Positions 10,206 to 32,688 of a stretch of DNA of 45,625 bases are shown in pieces. The DNA is taken from contig CAYOMI010000001.1 in the NCBI GenBank assembly GCA_964405005.1, positions 1 to 45,625 on the forward strand. Direction: 5' to 3'. Positions within the stretch are counted from its first letter, which is position 1. Every line of letters begins with the position of its first letter. This DNA comes from an uncultured Planctomycetales bacterium. Lineage in GTDB: Bacteria > Omnitrophota > Gorgyraeia > Gygaellales > Profunditerraquicolaceae. The position numbers were made by a program, and so were the translations under genes. The notes beneath the pieces were generated by a model. It was not told the DNA's origin and ran no database searches. It saw nothing but the letters and a program-made list of their open reading frames with translations.

Positions 10206-11282
10206 ATGTGTAATAGTTGCATATCAGTATTAAAACAAAATTATTTCGAAGGCGCCCTACTTGAAAAGAAGAGTTTTTATATTAATAAAGAACTCAATAA
10301 ATTGGAAACTCAAGAAAAGAGGATAGTGTTAAAATCTAACCCTGTAAACTTGATGATTATCTTGACAAGGCGATGTAATTTAAAGTGTATTATGTGCCCG
10401 CGAATTCACGAAGAAAAGATTGCTTTGCCGTTAGAGTTAGTCGGGAAGCTCTACCCCCTTTTTCCCTATTTAGAATGGATTGATTGGCAGGGCGGAGAGG
10501 TTTTTTTGGTAGATTATTTTAAAAAATTATTTTTGGAAATATCTAACCGCCAACCTCATATATTGCAACATATAACCACTAACGGCTTACTTATAGATAA
10601 AGAATGGGCCGAAATTTTTTCACAATCGAATGTCGATTTACTGTATTCAATAGACGGCGTTACCAAAGATGTTTATGAATACGTAAGAACTGGAGCAAGG
10701 TTTGATGATTTGATAAGAAGTTTAGAGCTAATAAATGAATTCAAAGAAAAACGCGGTAACTATAATAGGTTAGAGATGACCGCGGTAGTTATGAAGTGTA
10801 ATTATAAGAATTTGTCTCTATTCCCGGATTTCTGCAAAAGATATAATTTTAATTCTTTGACGTTGAATTTTTTACAACCCGAAATAATTCCTGAACAGGA
10901 TATCCTTATTAACCCAGACCCTGAAGCCATTTCTTATTTAAGGGTAATCATCCCCCAAATTAAAAATACATGTAAAGAATATAATATCGAATTTAAATGT
11001 ATGTTCGAATCCCGCCTTATAGATTCTCAACAACACCCTTTGGACAAAAATATTAAGGCGGATCCGTATGATTGCATTTATCCTTGGACAAGAATTCACG
11101 TTCAACCCGATGGTAAAGTCTATCCCGCGTGTCAATGTAGTTTAAGCATCGGCGATCTTAAAAATAACACTTGGGAAGATATCTGGAATGGGCATACGAT
11201 GCAATTGTATCGGAATTTAATTTTTAACGGGCGAAGAGAAGAAATTTGTTCTCAGCAATGCCTTATTTATCCCCCTGATTAG
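10206..11282 (+). CDS. Radical SAM protein with SPASM-like C-terminal Cys cluster (type S)
   Basis: Core LTRRCNLKCIMCPR, then WQGGEVFL and TTNGLL. C-terminus CIYPWTRIHVQPDGKVYPACQCSLSIGDL...ICSQQC. Paralog of 13919..14971 and of the C-terminal third of 16797..19715. All three share the N-terminal L-x-QE-[KR]-[KR]-I-x-L-x-S signature. Confidence 0.85.
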   Translation: MCNSCISVLKQNYFEGALLEKKSFYINKELNKLETQEKRIVLKSNPVNLMIILTRRCNLKCIMCPRIHEEKIALPLELVGKLYPLFPYLEWIDWQGGEVFLVDYFKKLFLEISNRQPHILQHITTNGLLIDKEWAEIFSQSNVDLLYSIDGVTKDVYEYVRTGARFDDLIRSLELINEFKEKRGNYNRLEMTAVVMKCNYKNLSLFPDFCKRYNFNSLTLNFLQPEIIPEQDILINPDPEAISYLRVIIPQIKNTCKEYNIEFKCMFESRLIDSQQHPLDKNIKADPYDCIYPWTRIHVQPDGKVYPACQCSLSIGDLKNNTWEDIWNGHTMQLYRNLIFNGRREEICSQQCLIYPPD

Positions 11283-11295
11283 AGTCAATTTTGCC

Positions 11296-12999
11296 ATGGA
11301 ACCCAAAGTACGCTTTACCTGGAACATGCTTTATGACTGTAATTACCGTTGTAGCTATTGTTTTTTTGAGGGTAAATGGCAGGAATATAGAAAGAGAAAT
11401 ATATATCTTTCTCCGGCAGAATGGCTGGAATACTGGAAAGCAATCCGTGATAAATATGGGCCGCCCTATCTTAATATTACTGGCGGAGAGCCTTTCATAT
11501 ATCCTAATTTCATTGAAATAATAAATAAGCTTTCGCAAATCTGTTACCACGTAGATATATCCAGTAATTCCTCCGGCGATTTAAAAACGTTCGTAGAACA
11601 AATAGATCCACAGAGGGTTTCTTTATCGCTTAGTTTCCAGCCCCAGTTCGATATATTAGAAGATTTTATTGAGCGGGTTATTTTCATAAGGAATCATAAA
11701 TTTGAAGGTTGCTTGAATTTTGTGGCATATCCGCCCTTTCTGAAAGATATAAGGGCCTATAAAGATAAGATTAATTTCATCGGAGAGAATTTGAAGATTA
11801 TTCCATTTTTTGGCATATACGGGGGGCGGACATACCCCGGCGCATATACTCAGGAAGAGAAAGAACTGGTTGGGATCAGCGAGGCTTGGTTTGCAAAAGT
11901 TCGAAAAAAGGGATCGCTGTGCCATGCGGGCCAGAAGGCCGCGCTTATTTTTCCTGATGGCAAAGTAACCAGGTGTGGGCAGGTCGGGGAAAATATGCTT
12001 TTGGGAACTTTTTTTGATCCGGATTTCAAGCTTTTAGACAACCCCTTGCCTTGCGATGCCGAATTTTGTCCCTGCGATGAGGATAAAGTATTACCCACGG
12101 ATGGCAATGACAGCGCTACGGCGAAAGTTTTAGAAAACAAATCAGAAACGGAACCCAAAATACAATCAGAGGGGGAGCCTAAAAGAAGTATATACTTCAC
12201 CTGGGATATCCATTATAAATGTAATTTCCGCTGTCCTTATTGCTGGTTTTTTAGAGGATGGGCCGAAGGGGCCAGGCGCAATATATATTTTGCTCCGGAA
12301 GAGTGGATGAAACACTGGAAGAGGGTTTACGATAAATACGGGAAAGTTCATATAGAGATTACAGGAGGAGAGCCTTTTCTCTACCCAAATTTTATTGAAC
12401 TTATAAAATTACTTTCCGATGTTCACTCTGTTAAGGTTACGACCAATATGTCGGGAGATATCGAGACTTTTGTCAGAGAGATTGATCCGAAAAAGGTAAT
12501 TTTAGACCTTAATTTCCACCCCTTGTTTAGCGATATAGATGCGTTTATGAAAAAGACCTTACTTTTAAAAGATGCGGGTTTTAAAGCCGGCGTCTGTTAT
12601 CTTGCCTATCCGCCGCAGATGACAAGGATAAATATGTTCAAAGAGCGCTTTGAAGAGAACGGTATTAATTTTGCCCTCGCCGCGTTCTGGGGCGAATATA
12701 GAGGCAAGAGATATCCGGAAAGTTATACGCCGGAAGAGATAGAATTCATCCGCCCGTTTCTGGGGGATATTGATAGGATTGTCTATCATCTAAAGGGCGA
12801 AAGCCCCAAAGGCAAGTTGTGCAATGCGGGATATAAATACGCAGTTATCCAGGCCGATGGGAAAGTAATCAGATGCGGGCAATTAGCGGATAAAATAATA
12901 AGTAACTTTTTGCACGAAGACTTCCATCTTTTAGATAAAGCTGAACCTTGCGAAGCTGAGCATTGCCCCTGCAATGAGTATGTGAATCTTAGCAACTAG
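11296..12999 (+). CDS. Di-domain protein: two tandem compact radical SAM domains (type A-A)
   Basis: Core 1 is DCNYRCSYCFF (Cys15 codon at 11338), with TGGEPFIYPNF and the tail LPCDAEFCPCDE. An acidic/Ser-Thr linker follows (DGNDSATAKVLENKSETEPKIQSEGEPK). Core 2 is KCNFRCPYCWF (Cys309 codon at 12220), with TGGEPFLYPNF and the tail EPCEAEHCPCNE. Confidence 0.85.
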   Translation: MEPKVRFTWNMLYDCNYRCSYCFFEGKWQEYRKRNIYLSPAEWLEYWKAIRDKYGPPYLNITGGEPFIYPNFIEIINKLSQICYHVDISSNSSGDLKTFVEQIDPQRVSLSLSFQPQFDILEDFIERVIFIRNHKFEGCLNFVAYPPFLKDIRAYKDKINFIGENLKIIPFFGIYGGRTYPGAYTQEEKELVGISEAWFAKVRKKGSLCHAGQKAALIFPDGKVTRCGQVGENMLLGTFFDPDFKLLDNPLPCDAEFCPCDEDKVLPTDGNDSATAKVLENKSETEPKIQSEGEPKRSIYFTWDIHYKCNFRCPYCWFFRGWAEGARRNIYFAPEEWMKHWKRVYDKYGKVHIEITGGEPFLYPNFIELIKLLSDVHSVKVTTNMSGDIETFVREIDPKKVILDLNFHPLFSDIDAFMKKTLLLKDAGFKAGVCYLAYPPQMTRINMFKERFEENGINFALAAFWGEYRGKRYPESYTPEEIEFIRPFLGDIDRIVYHLKGESPKGKLCNAGYKYAVIQADGKVIRCGQLADKIISNFLHEDFHLLDKAEPCEAEHCPCNEYVNLSN

Positions 13000-13037: not shown

Positions 13038-13877
13038 ATGATGGAATTCAATTGGGACATTCATTATAAATGTAATTATAGGTGCCCTTATTGTCCGTTT
13101 TACGGAAAATGGCAAGAAGTATCGCAGGCGAGCAGGTATTTTTCTGTAGAAGAATGGATATCTGCATGGAGGAGGGTCTATAAGAAATACGGGACCGTGC
13201 GTATTATCATGGCCGGAGGAGAACCGATTATCTATCCTTCTTCATTCGCCCTAATTAAAGAATTATCGAGAATGCACCAACTCGATGTAGTTACTAATCT
13301 TTCGTGTTCAAAAGAGGTATTATCTGATTTAATCGGTCAACTTGATGATTCGCATAAATTATCTTTGAGTGCCAGCTATCAGCCGCTATTTACAAGTTTT
13401 GAACTTTTTCTGGAGAAAATATTGATTATAAAAGAAAAGGGCATCCTTGCCGGGATAAACATTGTAGCGTACCCCCCCGCATTGAAACTGTTAGGCTATT
13501 TCAAAGATGAATTCAAAAAAAACGGCTTTAACATAGTAATCTTGCCTTTTAGGGGAGAATACGGCGGAGTTATCTATCCTTATGGATATACAGCTGAAGA
13601 GGCCAGTATGATTTATGATCTGGCTGCCGATTTTCCAATAAAACAGCAGGAACAGCTGGAACAATTCATGCATCCGAATAAATCCAAGGGGAAACTTTGT
13701 TATGCCGGACAGAAATACGTGCATATTGGCTGTGATGCCCAAGTATACAGATGTAACACAGGCGAGCAAAGGATAGGTTATTTTTTCGACGAAAAGCTCA
13801 CCTTTCTGGAACATCCTTTGGTTTGCGAACAAGAAGTTTGCCCTTGCGAATTTAGGTGGCTGGTAAAGGATAATTGA
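13038..13877 (+). CDS. Compact radical SAM protein (type A)
   Basis: FNWDIHYKCNYRCPYCPF, AGGEPIIYPS, AYPPALKL and KGKLCYAGQKY. The C-terminal tail is LVCEQEVCPCEF. 279 aa, single domain. Confidence 0.85.
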   Translation: MMEFNWDIHYKCNYRCPYCPFYGKWQEVSQASRYFSVEEWISAWRRVYKKYGTVRIIMAGGEPIIYPSSFALIKELSRMHQLDVVTNLSCSKEVLSDLIGQLDDSHKLSLSASYQPLFTSFELFLEKILIIKEKGILAGINIVAYPPALKLLGYFKDEFKKNGFNIVILPFRGEYGGVIYPYGYTAEEASMIYDLAADFPIKQQEQLEQFMHPNKSKGKLCYAGQKYVHIGCDAQVYRCNTGEQRIGYFFDEKLTFLEHPLVCEQEVCPCEFRWLVKDN

Positions 13878-13918
13878 CGGGAAATGGACTATTTTTTTGA
13901 TTGCAGCCCATATTAATT

Positions 13919-14971
13919 ATGTATTCTGAATCTAAAAAAGATTCCGGCCTTTTTTTAAATAACAAAGAGATTAATGCGGAAGAGACGAAGGAACGCAAGA
14001 TAACCCTGGAATCCAAGCCTTTGTTACTGGGGATTATAATCAATGATTGGTGTAACCTGGATTGCATTATGTGCCTGGACTCAAGGCATAAAAATCAATA
14101 CGCTTTATCCGTGCCTGCCTTATGGAAAATCAAGGAATTATTGCCTTATCTTGAAAGAATAGATTGGCAGGGAGGAGAATTTTTTCATTTAGATTATATG
14201 AAGGAAATATTCCTGTTTATGAAGGGTTATCCCCATATAAGGCACACCATCACTACAAACGGTTTACTATTAAATGAAGAATGGATAGAATTACTGCTCA
14301 ATTTAAATACGGCGGTGACTTTTTCTATTGATAGCCCCAGAAAAGAAACATACGAATATATACGCCGGGGCGGCAGTTACGATGAATTGATAGAGCGCCT
14401 CAATTTAATTATTGACTTAGAGCAAAAATATAAAAAGAGACTAGAAAGATACCTTACCGTCGTTGTTATGAAGTCTAATTACCTCCATTTAGCTGAATTT
14501 GTTGAGTTCGCAAAAAAATATGGATTTAGTTCTGTGTTTTTTTCTCCTGTGAGACACCTGGAAAATGAAGAAAACATTTTTAAGCATATTAGTGAAGATA
14601 CCCAAAAATACCTTAGTAGGATTATGAGCGAATTGAAATCTCGTTTCGCTGAAAGCGGCATAGAATTTAAGTGTAATCTACCGGAGTCCCATAAGAGGCC
14701 GGATGTTGTTCAGGGCGGATTGCCGATAAAGAAGGAAGGGGATTTATTATGCGATCTCCCCTGGAAAGGGATGTTCATCTGTGCTGAAAGAAATGGCGAT
14801 ATTGTTCCTGACTGCTGGTGTTTACAGCCAATAGGTAATATCTTCCAGAATACTTTGCTGGAAGCCTGGAATAGCCAGAAAATGCAGGAATATCGCAGAA
14901 GAATAGCCGCGTACGATATGGGGCTGTGTAGCGAATGTTATGCGCAAGACCAATATATCAGGTCTTTTTAA
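13919..14971 (+). CDS. Radical SAM protein with SPASM-like C-terminal Cys cluster (type S)
   Basis: Core NDWCNLDCIMCLD, then WQGGEFFHL and TTNGLLL. C-terminus CDLPWKGMFICAERNGDIVPDCWCLQPIGNIF...LCSECY. The preferred start is the ATG at 13919 (MYSESKK...). The ORF track starts at a TTG at 13901. The stop abuts the next gene's start (TAAATG). Confidence 0.83.
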   Translation: MYSESKKDSGLFLNNKEINAEETKERKITLESKPLLLGIIINDWCNLDCIMCLDSRHKNQYALSVPALWKIKELLPYLERIDWQGGEFFHLDYMKEIFLFMKGYPHIRHTITTNGLLLNEEWIELLLNLNTAVTFSIDSPRKETYEYIRRGGSYDELIERLNLIIDLEQKYKKRLERYLTVVVMKSNYLHLAEFVEFAKKYGFSSVFFSPVRHLENEENIFKHISEDTQKYLSRIMSELKSRFAESGIEFKCNLPESHKRPDVVQGGLPIKKEGDLLCDLPWKGMFICAERNGDIVPDCWCLQPIGNIFQNTLLEAWNSQKMQEYRRRIAAYDMGLCSECYAQDQYIRSF

Positions 14972-15904
14972 ATGATTAAACCGCCGCCCGATTTTAGAAG
15001 GGGTATCGCTCCGCATAGGGTATTTTTTAACTGGGAGGTTACTTATAAATGTAATTATAACTGTTCGTATTGCAGTTTTGGGGGTGCCTCTAAGAGAAAA
15101 GAACCGCGGCCCACCGTTTATCCCGGCATAGATAAATGGTTTCAGGCATGGCACAGTATATACCAAAGATACGGCAGTTGCGAAATACATTTTGCTGGCG
15201 GCGAACCTTTTGTCTACCCTGAATTTATGGATTTAATCGAGCAGTTATCCGAAATCCATACGATGGAATTTTCTACAAATCTTTTTTGGGATCCCGATGA
15301 TTTTATAAAGAGAATAAGACCCGGCAGAGCGCGTATAGGCGTAAGTTTCCATTCCGAATTCGTTGATTTTGATACCTTTTTTTTAAAGGCGTTAAGCCTT
15401 AAAGGGGCGGGTTTTGAAGTTTGGGCAAATTATGTTGCCTACCCCCTGTTTATGGAAGGCATGGATAAATATAAGAAAAAATTCGAAGAATCCGGAATAT
15501 CGATGTCTATTTTGCCTTTTAAGGGCAAGTATGACGGAAGGGAATACCCCGAAAGTTACACCCGGCAGGAAAGAGAGTGCCTGAGGAAACTCGGCACATC
15601 CAGTTGGACAGAGAAAACCCTGGATTTCGCTTTTGATAAAGAGAAAGGCAATGTTCGCGATAAGCTGTGTCACATGGGACAGATGTATGCAAAGATACAC
15701 CCCGACGGCGAAGTTTATAACTGCTGCGCGGAAAACGCCTTAAGGTTAGGTAATATTATTGATGGCACGTTCTCTCTATTGGAGGAACCGTTTTTCTGCA
15801 AACAAAGCAATTGTCCCTGTTGGAGGGCTATGGTCGTGGGGAATGCGGGTTATTGGCTGGAACATTGGCCGGTTCCTCCCGATGCAAGATATAATAACAC
15901 GTAG
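14972..15904 (+). CDS. Compact radical SAM protein (type B variant)
   Basis: FNWEVTYKCNYNCSYCSF, AGGEPFVYPEF, ANYVAYP and LCHMGQMYAKIHPDGEVYNCC. The tail is FCKQSNCPCWRAMVVGNAGYWLEHWPVPPD. This tail and the CEIH/ANYVAYP signatures recur only in the middle domain of 16797..19715. Confidence 0.85.
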   Translation: MIKPPPDFRRGIAPHRVFFNWEVTYKCNYNCSYCSFGGASKRKEPRPTVYPGIDKWFQAWHSIYQRYGSCEIHFAGGEPFVYPEFMDLIEQLSEIHTMEFSTNLFWDPDDFIKRIRPGRARIGVSFHSEFVDFDTFFLKALSLKGAGFEVWANYVAYPLFMEGMDKYKKKFEESGISMSILPFKGKYDGREYPESYTRQERECLRKLGTSSWTEKTLDFAFDKEKGNVRDKLCHMGQMYAKIHPDGEVYNCCAENALRLGNIIDGTFSLLEEPFFCKQSNCPCWRAMVVGNAGYWLEHWPVPPDARYNNT

Positions 15905-15936: not shown

Positions 15937-16752
15937 TTGGACAATCAGATTTTATTCTCTTGGGATATTCATTATGTTTGTAATTACCGCTGTCCCTACT
16001 GCTGGTTTGACGAGATATGGTGTGACTTAGCGAAACAAAATAAATATTTGCCTATAGGAAAAATAATAGAAGCATGGGAGAAGATTTATATAAATTATGG
16101 TCCTGCGCGTATTGCGGTTTTAGGCGGCGAGCCATTTATCTACCCCCGCTTTAAGGAATTAATCAGAGAGTTATCCAGAATGCATTTTTTGGAAATTACT
16201 TCTAACCTATCCGTTAAATTAGATTACTTTATGGAAGAAATAAATCCTCCGCGGGTAAGCGTTACCGGCACATTCCATCCCCTGTTTGCTGATTTCGACA
16301 ACTTCATTAAAAATGTCTTGCCCTTGAAGGAAAAGGGCACCTGTCACCAGATATGGTACGTGGCTTATCCGCCTCAAATTAAGCTAATGCAGTATTACAA
16401 AAAGAAATTCGATAAATATAAAATTCCGGTTTCAGTAATGACTTTTTGGGGAAATTGCCACGGCATAAGATATCCTCAGGGTTATACAAAAGAAGAAAAG
16501 GATATTATTGCGCCGTATCTTGGCGAAAGGGGAGGAGAAGAGTTTCAATTGAAGCCTAAAAAGACAAAAGGGAAATTATGTCGTGCCGGCCAGGCATATG
16601 CTGTTATCAAAGCAGGCGGTCTGGCATACAGATGCAGCGAGAGTTGCCTTGAGCCGATAGGCAATTTTTTTAGCAATAATTTTAAATTGCTGAAGGAGCC
16701 CCGGCCCTGCGAATCTGAATTTTGCCCCTGTAATGAATGGCGCTTTTGTTAG
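15937..16752 (+). CDS. Compact radical SAM protein (type A)
   Basis: FSWDIHYVCNYRCPYCWF, LGGEPFIYPRF, AYPPQIKL and KGKLCRAGQAY. The tail is RPCESEFCPCNEW. TTG start at 15937 preceded by GGAGAAGG. About 55-60% identical by eye to the first domain of the next gene, with exact nucleotide patches shared. Confidence 0.82.
   Translation: MDNQILFSWDIHYVCNYRCPYCWFDEIWCDLAKQNKYLPIGKIIEAWEKIYINYGPARIAVLGGEPFIYPRFKELIRELSRMHFLEITSNLSVKLDYFMEEINPPRVSVTGTFHPLFADFDNFIKNVLPLKEKGTCHQIWYVAYPPQIKLMQYYKKKFDKYKIPVSVMTFWGNCHGIRYPQGYTKEEKDIIAPYLGERGGEEFQLKPKKTKGKLCRAGQAYAVIKAGGLAYRCSESCLEPIGNFFSNNFKLLKEPRPCESEFCPCNEWRFC
15968..15995. repeat. 28-nt exact direct repeat, copy 1 (rSAM core of 15937..16752)
   Basis: ttcattatgtttgtaattaccgctgtcc is identical at 16843..16870. 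It encodes HYVCNYRCP. Confidence 0.9.
16699..16740. repeat. 42-nt exact direct repeat, copy 1 (3' end of 15937..16752)
   Basis: ccccggccctgcgaatctgaattttgcccctgtaatgaatgg is identical at 17574..17615. It encodes PRPCESEFCPCNEW in both genes. Confidence 0.9.
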
Positions 16753-16796: not shown

Positions 16797-19715
16797 ATGG
16801 AAAGGGAGAAGATAACAAGTAAAATCTCATTTAGCTGGGACCTTCATTATGTTTGTAATTACCGCTGTCCATATTGTTGGTTCCACGGCAAATGGCAGGG
16901 GCTGATTAATCAGAATAAATATTATCCCCTCCCGGAATTATTAAAAACGTGGAAGGTTATCTACAGGAAATACGGTTCCGCGTGCATTAAGATTATAGGC
17001 GGCGAGCCATTTATCTATCCGAATTTTACTGAATTAATAAAAGAATTGTCGCAGGTCCATACTATTTGGATTGCGAGTAATTTATCTACGGACATAGACG
17101 ACTTTGTAAGGCAGATTAATCCCGCTAATGTCAAAGTAAACCCGACCTTCCATCCTTTGTTTGCCGACTTCGGCAGATTTATCAAGAAATTATTACTTTT
17201 AAAAGAAAACGGCATAGCAGACCTTGTGACTTTTCTAGCTTATCCGCCTCAGATTAAACTGATAAAGTATTATGCGGATAAATTTAATGAGTATGGGATT
17301 CCGCTTTCAGCAATGACTTTTTGGGGGCAATATAATAAGACCAGCTATCCCCAGGGCTATAGCGAAGAGGAAAAATCTCTTATCGCGCCATATCTGTCAG
17401 GCGAGGAAGAAGAAAAATTTCAATTAGAACCTAAAAAGGTACAGGGAAAATTATGCCGCGCCGGGCAAGTGTATGCTGCTGTCCAGGCAGATGGTTCCGT
17501 ACGCAGATGCGGCGGCATTGGCTCTCAGGCGATGGGTAATTTCTTTTGCAGCGAATTTAATTTACTGGAACAACCCCGGCCCTGCGAATCTGAATTTTGC
17601 CCCTGTAATGAATGGGTAGGATTATTAATTGATGGCGAAGGACCTGTTGAGTCCACAAAAGAAAAAAATGACGGCATCCGACTATCTTTTGCGGTAGAAA
17701 GAGAAACCGCAGGGATTAAAAGAGAGATTGACCGCAGTTCTATCCCGCCTAAGAGGGTTTTTCTGACCTGGGATATACACTATGGTTGTAATTATAACTG
17801 TACTTATTGCAATACCCCAAAACCCTGGAATCCGCCGGGTTCGTGGGACCGCGATCGGGATAAGGTAGTTTATCTGGAAGCTGATAGGTGGCTTAAAATA
17901 TGGGATGATATCTATAGAAGATATGGCAGTTGCGAAATCCATATAACGGGCGGCGAACCCTTTACTTACCCTTCCTTTCTTGAATTGATACGGGATTTAT
18001 CCAAGATGCATACCTTGGAAATTATTACCAATCTCTCTTTGAATGTTAATGACATTATTGCTGCCGTAACAGCCGATCGAGTGCGTATCGGCACTACCTT
18101 TCACCCCGAATTCGCTGATTTAAAAGAATTCTTAGCAAAACACCTTATTCTAAGAGGACACGGTTTTGAGACGTGGGCGAATTACGTCGCTTATCCTCCC
18201 CAATTAGAGAGAATGGCAGAGTATAAAAAAGAATTTGATAATCTGGGAATACCGTTTAATATCCAGCCTTTTATGGGGCATTTTCAAGAACGGGAATACC
18301 CGAAAGACTACACGAAGGAAGAATTAGCCTATTTAAAGGGATGCTACGATAGCGAAGACGTTGTCAATAAAAAGACCGTAGAATGGAAGACCGGCTCGGA
18401 ACAAAAGAATACTAAAGGCAAACCGTGTCGTATGGGCCAGATGTATGCCAAGATTTATCCCATAGGAGATGCTTATCGGTGCTGTGCAAATAAGGCTAAA
18501 AAAATAGGTAATTTAATCGACGGCACCTTCGAGCTGTTAGGGGAGCCCTTACCCTGCGAAAACGAACATTGTTTTTGTTGGAGGTGTATGCTGGAGGGCG
18601 AAGAAGATAACTGGTCGCAACACTGGGTTATTCCGGGAGACTACCGCAAGCCCGTAAATAAATTACAAAACCGGTACTTAGAAAACAAAAAACTCAATCA
18701 ACTCGAGATACAAGAAAGAAAGATTAAACTCGATTCGAAGTTAAGAAGGCTCATGGTTGTTCTGACAGGCAGGTGCAATATAGATTGCATAATGTGCGAA
18801 AGAAAATCAAACGGTTCTACTTTTCCCCGGCAAGCCATTGAACAAATCGTCGGCCTTTTCCCGTACCTCGATTCGATTATGTGGCAGGGGGGAGAAGTAT
18901 TTATGGTTGATTATTTCAAAGAATTTTTTCAAGAAGCTTCCAGGTATCCTCAGTTGACCCAGGAGATAAATACCAACGGTCTGCTTATTACAGAAGAATG
19001 GGCTGAGAATATAGCCAGAGCAAATACGAGGTTGATTTTTTCTATTGATAGCACGGATAAAACTATATACGAATATATAAGAAAAGGGGCAAAATTTGAA
19101 ACTTTAATCAGGAATGTTAGTCTAATTAAAGAAGCAAAACAACGGTATAACAAACTCGAAGCTATGGATATCATCAATATTGTGGTAATGCGTTCCAATT
19201 ATGAGCATTTGGATAGCTTTATAGATTTCGCATTAGAATACGGTTTTAGAGGACTTAACTTTATGTATATGAACGGCAATATCTGTCCGGAAGAAAATAT
19301 ATTCAGCCCCGCTGACAGACAGGCTCAAGATTATCTTAGGCGTTGCGTACCCCGGATTATAGAAAGGGGCAATAGCTTAAATATAAATGTAACTTGCGAC
19401 TTTACGCCTCTGTTATTTGACGACCGGTCTATAGCTCTAAAGGAATCCAAATCCGGCCGGGGAGAAGACGGGCTATTCTGTTTGCTGCCCTGGAAATCTT
19501 TATTTATTGATGGTACGCAAGAAGGGAATGTCTATCCGGAGTGCGTATGCCGTATTCCTGTAGGCAACATATTCAAGGAGCCCCTCACCGAGATCTGGAA
19601 CAGCGAGAATATGCAGGCGTATCGCAATAAGATTATAAACCGCGAGTTAGAAAACTGGTGTAATTCTAATTGTATTAACGGGATAGTAAACAAAGACTTT
19701 ATACAGGGTTTATAA
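16797..19715 (+). CDS. Triple radical SAM fusion (compact type A + compact type B + SPASM-like type S)
   Basis: 972 aa with three CxxxCxxC cores. They are VCNYRCPYC (Cys20 codon at 16854), GCNYNCTYC (Cys331 codon at 17787) and GRCNIDCIMC (Cys660 codon at 18774). Each domain keeps its GGE(P/V)F motif and its own Cys-rich tail: PCESEFCPCNEW, PCENEHCFCWRCMLEGEEDNWSQHWVIPGD and CLLPWKSLFIDG...ECVCRIPVGNIF...WCNSNC. Confidence 0.88.
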   Translation: MEREKITSKISFSWDLHYVCNYRCPYCWFHGKWQGLINQNKYYPLPELLKTWKVIYRKYGSACIKIIGGEPFIYPNFTELIKELSQVHTIWIASNLSTDIDDFVRQINPANVKVNPTFHPLFADFGRFIKKLLLLKENGIADLVTFLAYPPQIKLIKYYADKFNEYGIPLSAMTFWGQYNKTSYPQGYSEEEKSLIAPYLSGEEEEKFQLEPKKVQGKLCRAGQVYAAVQADGSVRRCGGIGSQAMGNFFCSEFNLLEQPRPCESEFCPCNEWVGLLIDGEGPVESTKEKNDGIRLSFAVERETAGIKREIDRSSIPPKRVFLTWDIHYGCNYNCTYCNTPKPWNPPGSWDRDRDKVVYLEADRWLKIWDDIYRRYGSCEIHITGGEPFTYPSFLELIRDLSKMHTLEIITNLSLNVNDIIAAVTADRVRIGTTFHPEFADLKEFLAKHLILRGHGFETWANYVAYPPQLERMAEYKKEFDNLGIPFNIQPFMGHFQEREYPKDYTKEELAYLKGCYDSEDVVNKKTVEWKTGSEQKNTKGKPCRMGQMYAKIYPIGDAYRCCANKAKKIGNLIDGTFELLGEPLPCENEHCFCWRCMLEGEEDNWSQHWVIPGDYRKPVNKLQNRYLENKKLNQLEIQERKIKLDSKLRRLMVVLTGRCNIDCIMCERKSNGSTFPRQAIEQIVGLFPYLDSIMWQGGEVFMVDYFKEFFQEASRYPQLTQEINTNGLLITEEWAENIARANTRLIFSIDSTDKTIYEYIRKGAKFETLIRNVSLIKEAKQRYNKLEAMDIINIVVMRSNYEHLDSFIDFALEYGFRGLNFMYMNGNICPEENIFSPADRQAQDYLRRCVPRIIERGNSLNINVTCDFTPLLFDDRSIALKESKSGRGEDGLFCLLPWKSLFIDGTQEGNVYPECVCRIPVGNIFKEPLTEIWNSENMQAYRNKIINRELENWCNSNCINGIVNKDFIQGL
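16843..16870. repeat. 28-nt exact direct repeat, copy 2 (first rSAM core of 16797..19715)
   Basis: Identical to 15968..15995. Confidence 0.9.
17574..17615. repeat. 42-nt exact direct repeat, copy 2 (end of first domain of 16797..19715)
   Basis: Identical to 16699..16740. The flanking bases differ on both sides. Confidence 0.9.
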
Positions 19716-19721
19716 TTTAAA

Positions 19722-21098
19722 ATGAAGGTTGCTTTAGTCTTGCCGCCCTTCCTTTACAAAAGGTGCCCTTTGATTGGATTAGCTTATCTTTCGGCATATT
19801 TAAAAAATAAGGACTTTGAGGTGGCCACCTTTGATTTAAATACTGAAATGCAAATTCCTAACGAAGGAGAAGAGAGGTTGTGGGCGGACTCTTTGTTTGT
19901 AAATAAATTCTTCAATAAACACCATGGCCTGTTTGAGTCTCTAGCAGAAAAGATATTACAGAGCCAGGCAGATATTATCGGATTTTCAGTATGGACTACC
20001 ACTAAACATGTTAGTTTGGCTTTGGCAAAGATAATCAAACACAAAGATAAAAGGAGGTTAATAGTCTTCGGTGGTCCAGAATGTAGTTTTTACGGCGAAA
20101 GTTTTATTAAAGACGAAGCAGTAGATATAGTAATCCGAGGAGAAGGCGAGGAGACTATTTTAGAAATAGCCCAGGCGTATAAAAAATATGGAAAAATAAA
20201 TTTTTGTCCGGGCGTTTTATTAAAGACAGATGGCGAAATAATCGATTGTGGATATAGGAATGAAATAGAAAACTTAGACTCTCTATCTTTTCCCGATTTT
20301 TCTGATTTTCCGCTTGAAAGATATTATTTAGTCAATACGCTTCCTCTGATGTTTAATAGGGGATGTTTAAGACGTTGCGTTTTCTGTAATACTTCGGTGG
20401 TCTGGAAAAAATGCCGATTTAGAAGCGCAGAAAACATTTATAAAGAAATATTATATCAAATTAAAGGTTATCCTCGGCTTCGAAAATTTGAAATTGATGA
20501 TACGGCGCTAAATCTCAATCTTAAAGAATTGTCAGAATTGTGCGATTTAATAATTACCAGCGGTCTAAAAATTGATTGGGGAGGTTCTGCAATAATTCAT
20601 CCTCAGATGGATTATAATTTATTAGCGAAGATGGCACAAGCGGGTTGTAGTTCTCTGGCTTATGGCTTAGAAAGCGGTTCGCAAAAAGTAGTCGATAGCA
20701 TAAGAAAAGGTTTCAAGATAGAAGAAGCCGAAAGGATAATTCGCGATACCTATAATACGGGAATCAAGGTGGTGTTAAATATAATAATTGGGTTCCCTAA
20801 TGAGGCTGAAAATGACTTTCGGCAAACAATGGAATTTATTAGAAGAAATAGAAACTATATTTTCTCCATCGCTCCTCCCAGCGAATGCTGGATCGGGAAT
20901 ACGGCATATTTGCATACCCATCCCGAAGATTTCAATGTAATTTTAAAAGAAGGCGGAGAATATTGGGAATCGGCGGATAAACTAAATACTCATGAAGAAA
21001 GACAAAGGAGAATAAAGATTTTTAACGATTTTATTTATTCTCTGCGGATACCGCTCGGTAGTGCTAATAAGCAGGAAATAATTCACTCAGGGACTTAA
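19722..21098 (+). CDS. Cobalamin-binding-domain (class B) radical SAM protein, clade I
   Basis: MKVALVLPP..., FGGPECSFY, IRGEGEETILEI, core NRGCLRRCVFCNT, GLESGSQKV and IIGFPNEAENDF. Confidence 0.85.
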   Translation: MKVALVLPPFLYKRCPLIGLAYLSAYLKNKDFEVATFDLNTEMQIPNEGEERLWADSLFVNKFFNKHHGLFESLAEKILQSQADIIGFSVWTTTKHVSLALAKIIKHKDKRRLIVFGGPECSFYGESFIKDEAVDIVIRGEGEETILEIAQAYKKYGKINFCPGVLLKTDGEIIDCGYRNEIENLDSLSFPDFSDFPLERYYLVNTLPLMFNRGCLRRCVFCNTSVVWKKCRFRSAENIYKEILYQIKGYPRLRKFEIDDTALNLNLKELSELCDLIITSGLKIDWGGSAIIHPQMDYNLLAKMAQAGCSSLAYGLESGSQKVVDSIRKGFKIEEAERIIRDTYNTGIKVVLNIIIGFPNEAENDFRQTMEFIRRNRNYIFSIAPPSECWIGNTAYLHTHPEDFNVILKEGGEYWESADKLNTHEERQRRIKIFNDFIYSLRIPLGSANKQEIIHSGT

Positions 21099-21124: not shown

Positions 21125-22510
21125 GTGAAAATTGTTTTGGTCCGCTGCCCGTGTATTAGTTTACCCTATCCACCCTCGATAGGCATGGCATACCTTAACT
21201 CTTTCCTGAAAAAAGCCGGACACGAAGTATTTATCTTTGACTTGAATATTGAGCTGTTTCATTCTGTTAACGATGAGAAGAAAAAAATATGGAACACGCC
21301 GGACGGTTCCAGTTTAATCAAATTATCCGAAGAAGTCATTTCCGACCATAATGATTTGTTTAATAATTATATAAGAAAAATACTGGCAACAGAAGCAACT
21401 GTAATCGGTTTTTCTGTCTGGGATAGCAACATTTTATGTAGTTTAAAATTTGCCCGAGAGATCAAAAAACTCAATAGAAGTATAAACATTGTGTTCGGCG
21501 GTCCCGAATGTTTTCCGAGGTGGTCGGGGAAAACTTTAATTAAAGAAGATTGCGTAGATGTGGTTGTTTATGGCGAAGGAGAAAAAACTTTAAAAGAATT
21601 AATCGACTATATAGAAGTGACGGGAAGAATCGGGCTTCATCCGGGCACGATTGTAAAAAATAATTTTAATATTATAGATTGCAGCAGCAGAGAACCAATA
21701 AAGGATTTAGATAGTATGCCGTTTCCTGATTTTAACGGTTTTCCTTTGGATAAATATATGACTAACGAATTTCCTATTATTTTTAACCGAGGATGCACAA
21801 GAAAATGTACATATTGTTCTCTGCCAGGCACCACGCCTCGATATCGTTGGCGCAGCGCTGATTCTATATATGAAGAGATGAAGTATCAAATTCGGAAACA
21901 CCCTCAAATAGATTCGTTTCATTCAGACTCCCCCGCCTTAAATTCTAATCTTAAAGAACTATCGAAATTATGCGATTTAATTATTCGCGATGGTTTAAAA
22001 ATAATATGGTCTGGATTCGCGGTTATTGATAAAGATATGGATTTAAGTTTATTAAGAAAAATGAAACAAGCAGGATGCCTTGGTTTAAACTTCGGCATAG
22101 AAAGCGGTTCCCAAAGAGTAACCGATAAAATGCGAAAAGGGTTCCGAATTCAAGATTCCGAGCAGAATATTCGAGATGCTTATAGTGCCGGAATAGAAGT
22201 AGTTGCAAATTTTATCGTGGGTTTTCCCGGTGAAAACGAAGAAGATTTCCAGCTAACATTAGATTTTATTTCGCGTAATCGGCAATACATTTCTTTCGTG
22301 GGCAGCGCAGCTTCTTGTTGGATATTGCCGTATATGTATCTTTATGACCACACTGATGAATTTGGTATTACGATGCATTCCGGCGACTGGTCTTGCGAAG
22401 GAAACAATTATCAGATAAGGAAGGCAAGAGAGGATAGGTTTAGGGAATTTATCAATTCACTCAATATCGGAAAATCATTTCCTAAATTACCACAGGAGGT
22501 TGGCCGGTAA
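21125..22510 (+). CDS. Cobalamin-binding-domain (class B) radical SAM protein, clade I
   Basis: The GTG start gives MKIVLVRCPC, matching the family N-terminus, and AAGGGGG lies upstream. Motifs FGGPECFPR, VYGEGEKTLKEL, core NRGCTRKCTYCSL, GIESGSQRV and IVGFPGENEEDF. Confidence 0.85.
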   Translation: MKIVLVRCPCISLPYPPSIGMAYLNSFLKKAGHEVFIFDLNIELFHSVNDEKKKIWNTPDGSSLIKLSEEVISDHNDLFNNYIRKILATEATVIGFSVWDSNILCSLKFAREIKKLNRSINIVFGGPECFPRWSGKTLIKEDCVDVVVYGEGEKTLKELIDYIEVTGRIGLHPGTIVKNNFNIIDCSSREPIKDLDSMPFPDFNGFPLDKYMTNEFPIIFNRGCTRKCTYCSLPGTTPRYRWRSADSIYEEMKYQIRKHPQIDSFHSDSPALNSNLKELSKLCDLIIRDGLKIIWSGFAVIDKDMDLSLLRKMKQAGCLGLNFGIESGSQRVTDKMRKGFRIQDSEQNIRDAYSAGIEVVANFIVGFPGENEEDFQLTLDFISRNRQYISFVGSAASCWILPYMYLYDHTDEFGITMHSGDWSCEGNNYQIRKAREDRFREFINSLNIGKSFPKLPQEVGR

Positions 22511-22517
22511 AGTTGTT

Positions 22518-23639
22518 ATGTTAATAATTAAAAAAATAATTCTTATTTTTTGTAGTTTGTTAGTTTCGTTAATTTTGGCGGAATTGATTATTCGCATTAC
22601 GCCAAGTTTGCGTTCTAAATATCAGCTATCTAGATATGAGGTAAAGAAGCACTCGGCGGTGCCTTGCGGGATTCCCAAAAAAGAAGAAGCTAGAAATAAG
22701 AGAGAGGGGATAAATAAGGATTATCGCAAGTCTGGGCTTTATCTCTACAGACCATCCAAAGTCCCAGGCTTGGGTTATGAACTTATTCCATATATGCCAG
22801 CTGAACGAGAAGTTAATTCTTACGGTATGGTTTGTAAGGAATATCCTATTAAGAAAGGGCCGAATGTTTATCGAATTTTAGTACTCGGAGATTCTGTCAC
22901 GCAGGAATATTCCTTTGTTGAAAATCTGGAAACTATGTTAAATGCTGCACATTTAGGTTTGGACTTTGAACTTTGGAATGCAGGCACCGGTGGTTACCAG
23001 GTTAATCAATATGCCGCCTATCTAAAATATAAAGGAATCCGATATGAGCCCGATATGGTAATTGTCGACTTTTGTCTGAATGATTTTGACCTTGACACGA
23101 TTGTTTACTATGAAACAAAAAACGGTGTTGCCGGATACCGCAATACGGGGTATTACTTATCCAAGGCCATTCCTTTGAATAAATGGTGCTACAGGCATTC
23201 TTATCTTTACCGCCTTTTAATTATAAACCTCGAAAAATTATTATTTACTCATGAGGGGAAAAACAAAGATTCCGCTTTTGATGAAAATCAGGAAGGCAGG
23301 TATTATCTTAAGTCAATAATGGATATCTGCAAAAAACATAAAATTCCCCTGCTGGCCGTGATTTTCCCCTATCTTAAGCCATTAGGCGAATATACCGATG
23401 GAGAGAAAGAACAATACAAGATGATATCGGATTCATTACGCGAGTTAGATATCGACGTTATTGATTTGCATGCGTATATACCCGAAGAAATTCGGCATAC
23501 GTTCAGGTCCAATAAGAAAGTTGCCCAGGACATAGTTCATATGAAACCTGAAGGTTATAACTTTGCAGCGAGAGCAGTTTTTAGTTATCTCGTTAAAAAT
23601 TATTTTGAGAAGACAAAGATTATAAAAAAAGTTAAATGA
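22518..23639 (+). CDS. Membrane-anchored SGNH/GDSL-family hydrolase
   Basis: Anchor MLIIKKIILIFCSLLVSLILAELII. Motifs YRILVLGDSVTQE, WNAGTGGY, DFCLNDF, HSYLYRL, IFPYLKPL and block V QDIVHMKPEGY. The ATG at 22518 is preferred over the track's TTG at 22500, which overlaps the upstream stop, but the start is uncertain. The stop forms ATGA with the next gene. Confidence 0.78.
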   Translation: MLIIKKIILIFCSLLVSLILAELIIRITPSLRSKYQLSRYEVKKHSAVPCGIPKKEEARNKREGINKDYRKSGLYLYRPSKVPGLGYELIPYMPAEREVNSYGMVCKEYPIKKGPNVYRILVLGDSVTQEYSFVENLETMLNAAHLGLDFELWNAGTGGYQVNQYAAYLKYKGIRYEPDMVIVDFCLNDFDLDTIVYYETKNGVAGYRNTGYYLSKAIPLNKWCYRHSYLYRLLIINLEKLLFTHEGKNKDSAFDENQEGRYYLKSIMDICKKHKIPLLAVIFPYLKPLGEYTDGEKEQYKMISDSLRELDIDVIDLHAYIPEEIRHTFRSNKKVAQDIVHMKPEGYNFAARAVFSYLVKNYFEKTKIIKKVK

Positions 23640-25138: not shown

Positions 25139-26833
25139 ATGGGGATCGTTAAATACCTTAAGTCAAAATTGAGCTTAATCTTTTTGTTGGCGGTCGTATG
25201 TTTTTATGCCGTTAATAACTACATTTGGTTGCGTTTAGATGCGCCGTTTCCCACCTTCCATTATTATGCTTTTGATTTCGGTAGGGTGATGGAGTTTTAT
25301 AATTTATTTCAAAAGTTTGATTTAAGTTTTCTTATAGACCAAATCATTAAGGTTCATAACCTGTTTTTTCACGCTCTAGCCGTTGCCTTTACGGCGTTGA
25401 TTTTTCAAAAATCGTATATTGCTATTATTCTATTTAATAATATCCTTTATTTTACAATCGCAATAATTTCTATATATTCGATAGCAAAAAAAATATTCGA
25501 TAAACCCACGGGTTTACTGGCAGTTGCTATATTTTCATTATATCCAGCCGTATATGGCTTATCACGGTTTTATGTCATAGAATTTGCCGTTATGGGCATG
25601 ATTCCTTTATGCGTGTTATATTTGCTGAATACAGAAGAGTTCACAAATCGGAAATATTCATTATTATTTGGTTTGGCTTTAGGATGGGCAATGATGATTA
25701 AATATTCCGCCGTGACGTTCATTATAGGACCGTTGCTTTATGTTTTGGTTAAAGCGCTAATTTTTAGACAGAGAGATAAAGTTACAAAGTTGCTGCCCGT
25801 TATTTTAAATATTGGATTATCGGCTTTTGCTGCCGCAGCAGTAACGGGGATAAAATATTTTAATTTTAATAATATTAAATTCTATCTCTCCCATCCTCTT
25901 CTTGAGGTAATCCCCGGTCAGGAGTGGTATAAACTTAACAGCCTTAGAGTTTATACCGCAGGCTTATTTGATCAACAGCTCTCCTTGGTTTTTTTCTTTG
26001 TCTTATTGTTTGCGTCGCCCGTATTTTTTTTCAAAGTAAAAAGAAAAATAATAATTATTTTGTTCACCTGGATTATAGTGCCCTGGTTAATTTTAGTCAC
26101 TATGCCTAATTCCTACAGGTCGGCTCATTTCATCATACCGTATTTGCCTGCGATAGCGTTAATATCGGCAGCCGGTTTAACCCAAGCTTTAAAAAGAAGC
26201 AAGAAGCTCAAGGCGATTATAATCGTGTTAATTCTGGCTATTGGCATAATTCAATATTATGACTTTTCATTTGGATTAGGTTTTAACTTGAGCAACTGGA
26301 AGGTCAAAATAACAAAAGGCTGGACAATCCATAATTATATCCTTTCAGAAAATGTTTGCCGCCGTCCAGAAAGCAGTAAAATTTATGATGAAGTAATATT
26401 GCTATTCGCTAAATATTCTGATAAACACGACAGTAAAGTATTAGTGCTGCCTCCCAGCGTTAGCTATTCTTATGTGCAGGCCCAAGTATGGGACTGCATC
26501 GCATGGCTTAGGGATCTCCCGATAGTTGCGTTAGACGCAAACCGCCAGTTTATAGATAAGGTATTAGAGAGACTTGAAGAAGTGGATTTTATTTTATGTG
26601 CGGGAAATAAGGATATCAAGGATAGCTCTTATTTAGATCATACATTAATGCGAGTCAGGAATCTTTACAGAAAAGAGCTTGATAACGAAACACTGGTAAA
26701 AATAGACCAGTTTTTAGCAGGGGATGTTAAGATGTTTAGAGAGAATTTTTATAGGCGCGTAAGTAAATTTGTGTTAATTGAAACAATTCCCTATAAGGAA
26801 ACCTGCTTCCGTATATATAAAAAACAGCGATGA
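25139..26833 (+). CDS. Polytopic membrane protein, putative GT-C fold glycosyltransferase (ArnT/PMT-like)
   Basis: About 12 predicted TM helices in the first ~380 aa, then a ~180-aa soluble C-terminal domain. The pattern SLYPAVYGLSRFYVIEF ... GLALGWAMMIKYSA resembles the ArnT/PMT_2-type (GT39/GT83) signature region. Paralog of 44065..45625. Confidence 0.55.
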   Translation: MGIVKYLKSKLSLIFLLAVVCFYAVNNYIWLRLDAPFPTFHYYAFDFGRVMEFYNLFQKFDLSFLIDQIIKVHNLFFHALAVAFTALIFQKSYIAIILFNNILYFTIAIISIYSIAKKIFDKPTGLLAVAIFSLYPAVYGLSRFYVIEFAVMGMIPLCVLYLLNTEEFTNRKYSLLFGLALGWAMMIKYSAVTFIIGPLLYVLVKALIFRQRDKVTKLLPVILNIGLSAFAAAAVTGIKYFNFNNIKFYLSHPLLEVIPGQEWYKLNSLRVYTAGLFDQQLSLVFFFVLLFASPVFFFKVKRKIIIILFTWIIVPWLILVTMPNSYRSAHFIIPYLPAIALISAAGLTQALKRSKKLKAIIIVLILAIGIIQYYDFSFGLGFNLSNWKVKITKGWTIHNYILSENVCRRPESSKIYDEVILLFAKYSDKHDSKVLVLPPSVSYSYVQAQVWDCIAWLRDLPIVALDANRQFIDKVLERLEEVDFILCAGNKDIKDSSYLDHTLMRVRNLYRKELDNETLVKIDQFLAGDVKMFRENFYRRVSKFVLIETIPYKETCFRIYKKQR

Positions 26834-26849
26834 ATATGTCGGCAAGCAA

Positions 26850-32684: not shown

Positions 32685-32688
32685 ACCT

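Follow-up and report, generated by a model that had tools for sequence, protein, structure and literature searches.

To our knowledge, the radical S-adenosylmethionine (radical SAM, rSAM) enzymes characterized so far carry one radical-generating domain or, in FbiC, two. FbiC (F0 synthase, coenzyme F420) is a fusion of CofG and CofH, domains that are separate elsewhere and that generate separate 5'-deoxyadenosyl radicals in one pathway (PMC11917521). In groundwater Elusimicrobia, up to 13 rSAM genes lie close together, some of them with B12-binding domains, at loci that are defined by nitrogenase-like paralogues and for which a tetrapyrrole substrate was proposed (Meheust et al., bioRxiv 10.1101/765248). 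Here we analyzed a 45,625-nucleotide (nt) stretch of DNA from contig CAYOMI010000001.1 (the window; position 1 is its first letter), in which a single gene encodes three rSAM modules, of the types named here A, B and S, in one chain of 972 amino acids (aa); a further rSAM module type of the window is named B12. The A-B-S protein is an FbiC-like multi-rSAM fusion with three uncharacterized SPASM/twitch-family modules. We consider it fairly probable, although by no means certain, that it is a genuine tethered three-module enzyme of stepwise origin that takes part in the tailoring steps of a pathway, perhaps that of an envelope glycoconjugate.

Architecture of the fused protein

An initial annotation of this gene had described one uninterrupted open reading frame (ORF) with three complete rSAM domains, each keeping its own Cys-rich tail, and the description held in its details. 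The ORF has an ATG start and no internal stop (Table 1), and its three CxxxCxxC motifs, CNYRCPYC (aa 20), CNYNCTYC (aa 331) and CNIDCIMC (aa 660), begin with Cys codons exactly where they had been placed, at 16854, 17787 and 18774. The Pfam profile Radical_SAM (PF04055) matched the protein in three stretches (E = 1.2e-39, 136.6 bits against a cut-off of 29.5 bits), and in module D3 the matches covered positions 1–166 of the 166 of this profile (aa 654–812) and positions 1–66 of the 67 of the SPASM profile. With such E-values, three matched stretches and a SPASM domain, a chance match is therefore excluded. All three modules, D1, D2 and D3, also contain the SAM-binding motif GGE (aa 68–70 in D1, aa 385–387 in D2, and likewise in D3), so that the marks of the radical SAM superfamily (CxxxCxxC, a Pfam score above the gathering threshold and a GGE in each module) are found in the protein, and D3 has in addition the C-terminal Cys-rich PF13186 domain that marks SPASM/twitch enzymes.

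These residues are conserved well beyond the fused gene. In the alignment of the modules of the window, CxxxCxxC and GGE(P) were kept by 7 of the 7 A/B-type and 3 of the 3 S-type modules. The A and B modules have extra invariant family motifs (FHP, AYP and YPxxY) and five invariant tail Cys in the pattern C-x2-G-x14-C ... C-x4-C-x-C, and a SPASM-type Cys pattern is conserved among the S modules. The cluster, GGE and tail-Cys residues were invariant or nearly so in alignments of 21, 46 and 58 sequences with database relatives as well, and none of the three cores was found to lack an essential motif. Among the A/B modules, the sole Pfam SPASM match was partial and lay in o14972, a B paralogue, and the Cys tails of D1 and D2 are consistent with a twitch-like single cluster. 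From the conserved cysteines, D1 and D2 are predicted to hold one auxiliary cluster apiece and D3 one or two, and some 6–7 Fe-S clusters per chain are plausible, close to the figure of up to about six proposed before. D1 and D2 are 38% identical, which places A and B as two branches of one family.

In the full-length AlphaFold model, D1 and D2 each formed six beta-alpha units, with predicted local distance difference test (pLDDT) values of about 90 or above. D3 was badly modeled with a shallow alignment, the predicted template modeling score (pTM) was 0.41 and the packing between modules was not confident; modeled alone with a deeper alignment, D3 reached a pLDDT of 92.4 and a pTM of 0.90. The partial (beta/alpha)6 TIM barrel of the superfamily was thus recovered, both in the models and in Foldseek matches to rSAM crystal structures. 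The Foldseek neighbors of the modules, with a probability of 1.0 at 12–21% sequence identity, were SPASM/twitch enzymes, namely BlsE, SkfB, CteB, anSME, SuiB, TigE, viperin, PqqE, MoaA, SpeY and DesII. For D3, the TM-scores normalized to the query were 0.57–0.66, with SuiB, SkfB, anSME and BlsE among the neighbors.

Orthologues and selection

Since the source organism is uncultured and a relative, L003, holds a decayed copy of the gene, one might suspect a pseudogene, or an artefact of assembly or sequencing, behind the long ORF, an explanation that we hold to be extremely unlikely. A protein search that covered ~5.8 billion proteins gave 136 matches at E <= 1e-10, the best 120 of which were parsed. 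The A-B-S architecture, for which a database search had been proposed, was found again at full length in P0001 (966 aa, 76% identical to the window protein) and P0002 (972 aa, 69% identical), which come from two further, different Joint Genome Institute (JGI) metagenomes and in which both junctions aligned in frame. The fragment P0003, 100% identical, covers the B-S junction. D2 alone is 87% identical to the D2 of P0001, and with the window included the A-B-S order is known from three intact genes and one decayed copy. In a codon-level comparison, the ratio of nonsynonymous to synonymous divergence (dN/dS) was 0.05–0.10 per module (D2 0.049, D3 0.08), figures that are approximate because dS, at ~1.1 or more, is near saturation.

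An artefact or pseudogene was consequently ruled out on the grounds that both in-frame junctions are common to three independent assemblies, that purifying selection is seen in every module, and that the catalytic motifs are all intact. Because of the in-frame orthologues in two other metagenomes and the low dN/dS, the 972-aa fusion protein is, as judged from these comparisons, genuine and not an artefact of assembly. No in-frame ATG, GTG or TTG occurs in aa 271–330, at the D1/D2 boundary, and none is suitably placed before D3; the modules can therefore be produced only as one chain.

Origin and remodeling of the fusion

The initial annotation had paired the three modules with the three separate genes directly upstream, which stand, as it noted correctly, in the order S-B-A, the reverse of that in the fusion. 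By BLASTP within the window, the best match of D1 was indeed o15937 (57% identity) and that of D2 was o14972 (46.6%). D3 matched two S genes almost equally, o10206 (40.8%, 252 bits) and o13901 (40.6%, 234 bits), and the gene with which it had been paired, the one at 13919 (o13901), comes second by a small margin. A fusion or recent duplication of the upstream S-B-A genes was rejected, since D3 is a member of a separate S clade, with ~40% identity to o13901 and o10206, and its free orthologues are located directly downstream of A-B genes.

As a rule, S proteins of the D3 type stand alone; such proteins are common, with ~350 aa and 53–70% identity to D3. At locus L084, an A-B gene (594 aa, 69% identical) is followed by an S gene 68% identical to D3 and then by a B12-rSAM gene, and the A-B and S genes overlap by 20 nt, in different frames, at the position that matches the fusion junction. 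In the nucleotide alignment of this overlap, insertions or deletions (indels) of 3 and 1 nt set the window and L001 apart from L084 and place S in the A-B frame; linker 2, 'GDYRKPVNKLQN', is the present translation of what used to be the overlap. As read from this alignment, the fusion arose by read-through or frame-merging of an ancestral pair of A-B and S genes and not of the upstream S-B-A genes. The view that the fusion argues against a read-through origin was thus contradicted. The A-B and S pair of L083, with a 14-nt overlap, was considered as an ancestral state too and was discarded, its S gene being of the o13901 type and not of the D3 type. In the tree of the D3-type S modules, the fused genes fall in a terminal subclade in which the window and L001 are joined with a bootstrap of 100%; the bootstrap for a single origin of all three fused genes is only 28%.

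The N-terminal module seems to have had a separate history. Nucleotide identity between the window and L001 is 0.53–0.78 at residues 1–265 and 0.78–0.91 from residue ~271 on, with a recombination breakpoint at the boundary of D1 and the linker. The free gene o15937 and D1 of L001 have an aa identity of 0.69 and a dS of 1.29, comparable with the dS of 1.12–1.15 of D2 and D3, while D1 of the window and D1 of L001 have an aa identity of 0.58 and a saturated dS. Because o15937 diverges from L001 D1 as an orthologue would and D1 of the fusion does not, the data are most simply read as a split-off of the ancestral N-terminal A module, now o15937, and the substitution of another A module for it. The pairing of o15937 with D1 as its closest match therefore stands, but the gene would be more than a paralogue, namely the displaced ancestral N-terminal module itself.

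At the other end of the protein, the S module is being lost in L003, an Omnitrophota metagenome-assembled genome (MAG) from NCBI. There, an annotated A-B protein of 618 aa is followed by an in-frame decaying S module (L003:11855-12496), in which TAA stops correspond to Q637 and Q714 and residues ~778–901 (~124 aa) have been deleted in frame; a free S gene of the o13901 type is retained. Judging by this decay, the S module is dispensable in at least one lineage. The L003 locus represents a natural 'fission by decay' of an A-B-S gene.

The comparative sequence data show a history in four steps. An A-B two-module gene, old and widespread in this Omnitrophota lineage, came first; the S module joined it when small indels in the 20-nt overlap merged the reading frames; the N-terminal A module was later exchanged, on the simplest reading, at the module boundary, its original being what is now the gene at 15937; and the S module is decaying again in one relative, L003.

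Linkers

Linker 1 has a pLDDT below 50 in the AlphaFold model (aa 281–309) and a dN/dS of 0.82, which is near neutral, and the dN/dS of linker 2, whose junction is conserved in P0001 and P0002, is 0.13–0.21. Between the window and L001, dN and dS of linker 1 are 0.23 and 0.28, a synonymous divergence four times below that of the flanking D2, which may come from a recent exchange tract, from constraint at the nucleotide level or from small-sample noise. In 79 relatives, the Cys tail and the CxxxCxxC that follows it are separated by 36 to 94 residues. Because the linkers are variable and weakly constrained, tethered sites are favored over a rigid complex, and the modules are probably independent active sites on flexible linkers, like beads on a string. 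The fusion had been taken to argue for a physical complex or for processive action on one substrate; a fixed complex is not indicated, in view of the near-neutral linker 1, the variable spacing, the variable module order, the pTM of the full-length model and the loss of S in L003.

Multimodule fusions across the lineage

The best 120 of the 136 matches were split into modules by BLASTP and motif counts. Half of them (60 proteins, ~600 aa) were A-B, and 18 were B-B12-A chains of 1,115–1,167 aa with three motifs. Less frequent were A-A (8), B-B (6), B12-A (6), B-A (5, some with tetratricopeptide repeat (TPR) linkers) and A-S (4); A-B-S was represented by two proteins besides that of the window, and A-A-B, A-B-B, B12-A-B and B12-A-S by one protein each. 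Four proteins of 1,270–1,475 aa were four-module chains, in the arrangements A-A-B-B and A-B-B-A (both ~1,300 aa) and B-B12-A-A (1,475 aa). Four CxxxCxxC and four GGE motifs were present in P0011, P0013 and P0016, and four CxxxCxxC and three GGE in P0035.

An exhaustive profile search with the A/B modules returned 13,058 representative proteins at E <= 1e-3, of which 687 reached E <= 1e-30. Most of these proteins have a single domain and ~280–310 aa, which indicates a large family whose multimodule chains are concentrated in an Omnitrophota-like branch. The named matches were MAGs of Candidatus Omnitrophota/Omnitrophica, and a scan of GTDB species genomes located the module families in Omnitrophota as well as in MAGs of Elusimicrobiota/Endomicrobiaceae, where they are mostly unfused. 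Triple-rSAM chains had been called very unusual; this is so for characterized enzymes but not for this lineage, in which, with its 18 B-B12-A and four four-module chains, they are by these counts a lineage trait and not singular to the window gene. No publication on these fusions or on three-domain rSAM proteins was found in the searchable literature, and combinatorial rSAM-module fusion in Omnitrophota so far appears undescribed.

Other arrangements were seen on single contigs and in other metagenomes. L005 (CAZDNS010000004.1), with 20 rSAM motifs, encodes B12-A-S2 (1,188 aa), A-B-B (972 aa) and B-S (1,018 aa) proteins; its taxonomic label, 'uncultured Planctomycetia', may reflect a binning or labeling issue, given the gene content. 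The A-A pair encoded upstream in the window (567 aa), which has orthologues in L002, L003 and L084, is extended in other metagenomes to A-A-B (P0036, 885 aa) and A-A-B-B (P0011 and P0016, ~1,300 aa).

With split and fused states both present among close relatives, the fusion could also be a neutral by-product of packed, overlapping genes in a streamlined genome, its modules acting independently and possibly on different substrates. To fuse A-B and S, the 20-nt overlap needed a net change of only one frame (indels of 3 and 1 nt in the alignment), L003 lost S and kept A-B, D1 was swapped, module orders are highly variable and the linkers are unconstrained. We nevertheless think this explanation unlikely. 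The same few module families are fused recurrently, in many independent combinations and far more often than with unrelated neighbors; the fused state is under strong purifying selection in at least three lineages at 69–76% identity; and the modules are always found in the same arrays, even when unfused.

The surrounding gene array

The fused gene lies in an array (1-40500) with 23 CxxxCxxC motifs, which are distributed over 18 ORFs of the + strand with very short intergenic gaps (the neighbors closest to the fusion are listed in Table 1). The array contains nine B12-binding rSAM domains, TPR proteins and five SGNH/GDSL genes, and the window also encodes a GT-C (PMT_2) membrane glycosyltransferase (GT) and a PRK07208-type flavin adenine dinucleotide (FAD) oxidoreductase, with GT9, GT2 and GT4 glycosyltransferase genes at its 3' end. 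No terminator-like sites were seen on the + strand between 13000 and 21500, which is consistent with an operon-like organization of the array. Promoter-like matches in the window were not above chance, and an Rfam scan of the window gave no match. Orthologues of the B12-rSAM gene that begins at 19722 lie 3' of A-B-S in L001 (78%) and L002 (73%) and 3' of the decayed A-B-S in L003 (74%).

Table 1. Features of the fused gene and of its neighbors in the window (aa, residues of the 972-aa protein unless stated otherwise).
Feature	Position	Strand	Remarks
Tri-modular radical SAM gene A-B-S	16797..19715	+	ATG start, 972 aa + stop codon, no internal stop
Module D1 (type A; aa 1-280): rSAM core + twitch/partial-SPASM-like Cys tail	16797..17636	+	
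Radical SAM cluster motif 1, CNYRCPYC (aa 20-27)	16854..16877	+	Invariant in alignments
D1 auxiliary-cluster Cys tail (predicted)	17454..17606	+	C220, C238, C263, C268, C270 invariant; C251 variable
Linker 1 (aa 281-312), probable flexible tether	17637..17732	+	pLDDT, dN/dS, spacing
Module D2 (type B; aa 313-612): rSAM core + Cys tail	17733..18632	+	
Radical SAM cluster motif 2, CNYNCTYC (aa 331-338)	17787..17810	+	
D2 auxiliary-cluster Cys tail (predicted)	18426..18587	+	C544, C562/C563, C587, C592, C594, C597
Linker 2 (aa 613-636)	18633..18704	+	From former A-B stop / S start overlap
Module D3 (type S; aa 637-972): rSAM core + SPASM domain	18705..19712	+	
Radical SAM cluster motif 3, CNIDCIMC (aa 660-667)	18774..18797	+	
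D3 SPASM domain (aa 895-959; Cys 895, 916, 918, 955, 959)	19479..19673	+	PF13186, E=9.5e-14, conserved Cys
Free-standing A gene (o15937)	15937..16752	+	Ends directly after CPCNEW module boundary; putative displaced ancestral N-terminal module
Free-standing B-type rSAM (o14972)	14972..15904	+	
Free-standing S-type rSAM/SPASM (o13901)	13901..14971	+	o13901 clade, distinct from D3 clade
Free-standing A-type rSAM (o13038)	13038..13877	+	
Two-module A-A fusion (o11296)	11296..12999	+	567 aa, CxxxCxxC at its aa 15 and 309
Free-standing S-type rSAM/SPASM (o10206)	10206..11282	+	Third S clade
First downstream B12-binding rSAM gene	19722..21098	+	Starts 7 nt after fusion stop codon

Several other genes of the window deserve mention. 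Two paralogous 924-aa proteins (1112-3886 and 7422-10196), with a B12-binding rSAM, TPR and rSAM/SPASM regions and two CxxxCxxC motifs each, have orthologues in L002 and L003 at 76–80% identity. The five SGNH/GDSL genes (3868-4935, 4916-5953, 5977-7413, 22500-23639 and 39413-40471), one of them fused to TPR repeats, encode proteins with an N-terminal extension of ~100 aa each, and such genes recur with rSAM arrays at loci of Omnitrophota and Elusimicrobiota. The GT-C PMT_2 gene (25139-26833) is followed by that of the PRK07208-type FAD oxidoreductase (o26778, 26778-28322), whose true start is probably further downstream, because the longest ORF found for it shares 56 nt with the PMT_2 gene. 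Two adjacent paralogues of ~185 aa (32659-33210 and 33241-33810), with a hydrophobic N-terminal half and a winged-helix (HTH_45-like) C-terminal region, may be membrane-anchored regulators within the array. Finally, a 189-aa protein without a Pfam or NCBIfam match (36057-36626) has one homologue of 191 aa, at L005:22659-23234, and this is the only unannotated protein family common to the arrays.

The array is among the densest rSAM arrays known to us; those of its relatives L005, L033 and L016 hold 14–20 motifs in ~21–24 kb. On L085 (ENA ERZ24794676, NODE_14), a 2,017-aa multi-glycosyltransferase protein (GT2, GT2, GT1 and others; L085:1-244) is encoded directly upstream of an rSAM array in which A-B and a free D3-type S gene are accompanied by B12-rSAMs, one GDSL gene and two PMT_2 genes.

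Possible function and substrate

From its motifs, one chain would form 5'-deoxyadenosyl radicals at three separate active sites, since D1, D2 and D3 would each have a SAM-cleaving [4Fe-4S] site (CxxxCxxC and GGE) and an auxiliary-cluster Cys tail of its own. The three modules might serve one pathway, in which they and the ~20 other rSAM and B12-rSAM domains of the array would perform radical tailoring in successive or parallel steps, and the fusion would fix their stoichiometry, co-localize them and possibly let them share reduction. A shared pathway is suggested because the same module types are fused repeatedly, because the 23 motifs lie in 18 same-strand ORFs and because terminator-like sites are lacking between 13000 and 21500. 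The Rosetta-stone logic applied to the gene in the initial annotation is in this respect strongly reinforced, as the same module types are repeatedly fused in relatives and form unfused arrays in Elusimicrobiota.

The substrate is the weakest step of the proposed mechanism. It would most likely be a non-ribosomal, envelope-associated glycoconjugate (a glycan or glycolipid) and not a peptide, a choice that we make with low confidence, because glycosyltransferase and SGNH partners recur and the hallmarks of ribosomally made peptides with post-translational modifications (RiPPs) were not found. In a census of partners at 19 array loci of Omnitrophota and Elusimicrobiota, the recurrent non-rSAM partners were GT-C PMT_2 (7 loci, two clusters), SGNH/GDSL (5), TPR or GDSL-TPR (4) and methyltransferase-GT2 fusions (3), and glycosyltransferases flank the arrays of the window, L083, L084 and L085. 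The PMT_2 and SGNH/GDSL genes recur in both phyla. In the giant proteins of Omnitrophota, radical SAM and sugar-metabolism domains are reported to fall in the same Pfam co-occurrence module (preprint 10.64898/2026.06.07.730766).

A number of observations weigh against the interpretation that we favor. In addition to the near-saturated dS, the inter-module contacts in the AlphaFold model were judged without pairwise error estimates, and no module of the fusion reaches any curated cut-off of NCBIfam. Glycosyltransferase genes are common in Omnitrophota, which makes their adjacency weak evidence. The loss of S in L003 and the swap of D1 indicate separable modules, so that the fusion could be selectively neutral. 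Lastly, the nearest structural neighbors of D3 are mostly peptide-modifying enzymes (SuiB, SkfB, TigE, CteB and anSME) and, together with the TPR domains fused to other rSAMs of the array, they favor a protein or peptide substrate.

These last points also belong to a rival explanation, the tailoring of a RiPP-like peptide or of a protein, in which SPASM/twitch modules would cross-link or epimerize, B12-rSAMs would C-methylate and TPRs would hold the peptide. TPR repeats are fused to rSAMs in o1112, o7422 and o37750 and occur in TPR-only genes too, and the best NCBIfam matches of the B12-rSAMs, although below threshold, are RiPP C-methyltransferase families (TIGR03975, ApyD). We regard this explanation as rather improbable, for neither a precursor peptide gene and a peptide-recognition domain (RiPP recognition element (RRE) or PqqD-like) nor a curated family match, by which a RiPP maturase would be recognized, was found. 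No module has an RRE/PqqD-like Pfam domain, and D3 lacks the N-terminal extension of SuiB and CteB; no precursor-like small ORF is conserved at the locus or across the 19 loci, although very small or unconventional precursors could escape detection; neither a leader peptidase nor an export ATP-binding cassette (ABC) transporter was found in the window; and the NCBIfam scores for RiPP maturases were all far below the cut-offs.

Less probable still would be the tailoring of a membrane lipid by methylation, cyclization or cross-linking of acyl or isoprenoid chains, with A-B-S performing several C-H functionalizations on one lipid. The B12-rSAMs do show sub-threshold similarity to HpnJ, HpnR and the 'lipid biosynthesis B12-binding/radical SAM protein' family, o33830 has a near-threshold match to DUF3463 (HpnH-type), and weak Tes (tetraether synthase) matches were found to the N-terminal rSAM core of D1, o14972, o13038 and both halves of o11296, but each of these matches scores far below its cut-off and covers parts that are generic to rSAM or Rossmann proteins. 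The five GDSL 'lipase/acylhydrolase' genes point in the same direction, yet fatty-acid, isoprenoid and squalene-hopene cyclase genes are absent from the window, and o26778, whose N-terminus is like that of CrtI/HpnE FAD oxidoreductases, is closest to PRK07208-type hypothetical FAD oxidoreductases (374.7 bits against a cut-off of 389) and not to carotenoid or hopanoid enzymes.

We also entertain, tentatively and with considerable doubt, a bolder idea, that of a modular 'radical assembly line' in which interchangeable A, B, S and B12 modules, some 20 or more enzymes in all, would build or decorate one heavily C-H-functionalized envelope polymer or natural product of an as yet undescribed kind, with A-B-S as its processive three-step tailoring unit. 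Omnitrophota would have this line and, unfused, so would Elusimicrobiota. Its modules would be duplicated, exchanged at their boundaries and joined to form chains with two to four active sites, akin to the modules of polyketide synthases and nonribosomal peptide synthetases.

With three complete modules on one chain, and four in relatives, Fe-S clusters and radical generation would be packed into one machine at unusual density. Nature has supplied split, fused, swapped and decayed states, a series that offers an experiment on the need for tethering, and the fusion network supplies strong guilt-by-association links among uncharacterized rSAM families abundant in two poorly understood phyla. A very large and unexplored pathway of radical tailoring is also indicated by the network, with 23 rSAM motifs in one 45-kb window, and its product may be an envelope glycoconjugate of a new type. 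Although the gene taken singly is less exceptional than it seemed at first, the module-shuffling system and the natural series of states merit experimental follow-up.

Comparison with known systems

Placement by NCBIfam, by sequence search against the PDB and by Foldseek did not go beyond the superfamily level, and since all the NCBIfam matches lie below their cut-offs, the reaction chemistry is therefore not assignable. The best-scoring curated family for the A/B modules is STM4011 (NF038073), to which the alignment spans nearly the whole model of 278 positions, the Cys tail included. The scores, 147.1 bits over two modules and 64–90 bits for single A/B modules against a cut-off of 200 bits, are far too low for membership, and the two are thus distant relatives; no description of the function of STM4011 was found in the searchable literature. 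The match to pVip (NF038283) gave 101.8 bits against a cut-off of 180 bits, and the PADLOC pVip matches of the A/B modules covered only the first ~100 of 257 profile positions; as only the generic rSAM core matches, an anti-phage, viperin-like function was rejected. MoaA (TIGR02666) was matched with 99.2 bits against a cut-off of 284 bits, in the core region only.

Each module resembles the SPASM/twitch enzymes (anSME, SuiB, SkfB, CteB, TigE, BlsE, SpeY, DesII, MoaA and viperin) in its fold, a partial TIM barrel, and in its predicted cofactor layout, with CxxxCxxC and a Cys-rich region at the C-terminus. Those enzymes are single-module proteins, unlike A-B-S, with which they share 12–21% identity and no family model above cut-off; A-B-S is also without an RRE. 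The other fusions of the lineage (A-B, B-B12-A, A-A-B and the four-module chains, and in the window itself the 924-aa proteins and the 567-aa A-A protein) draw on the same module families, occur in the same arrays and in Omnitrophota MAGs and are likewise uncharacterized entries, but they combine the modules differently from A-B-S.

At the level of gene organization, the loci of Elusimicrobia and the array of the window are alike in their clustered rSAM and B12-rSAM genes, and Elusimicrobiota is a sister phylum. A link to the nitrogenase-paralogue loci was nonetheless rejected, as no nif-like genes were found in the window or at the 19 array loci examined.

The closest parallel in architecture is FbiC. 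Both FbiC and the A-B-S protein have more than one complete radical SAM domain per chain, and in both cases the domains also occur as separate proteins. The families CofG, CofH and FbiC were absent among the best 25 of the 55 NCBIfam families matched at E <= 0.001, and the likeness is architectural, without detectable specific homology. FbiC has two domains and A-B-S three, and the A-B-S modules, unlike the domains of FbiC, are of the SPASM/twitch class with predicted auxiliary clusters.

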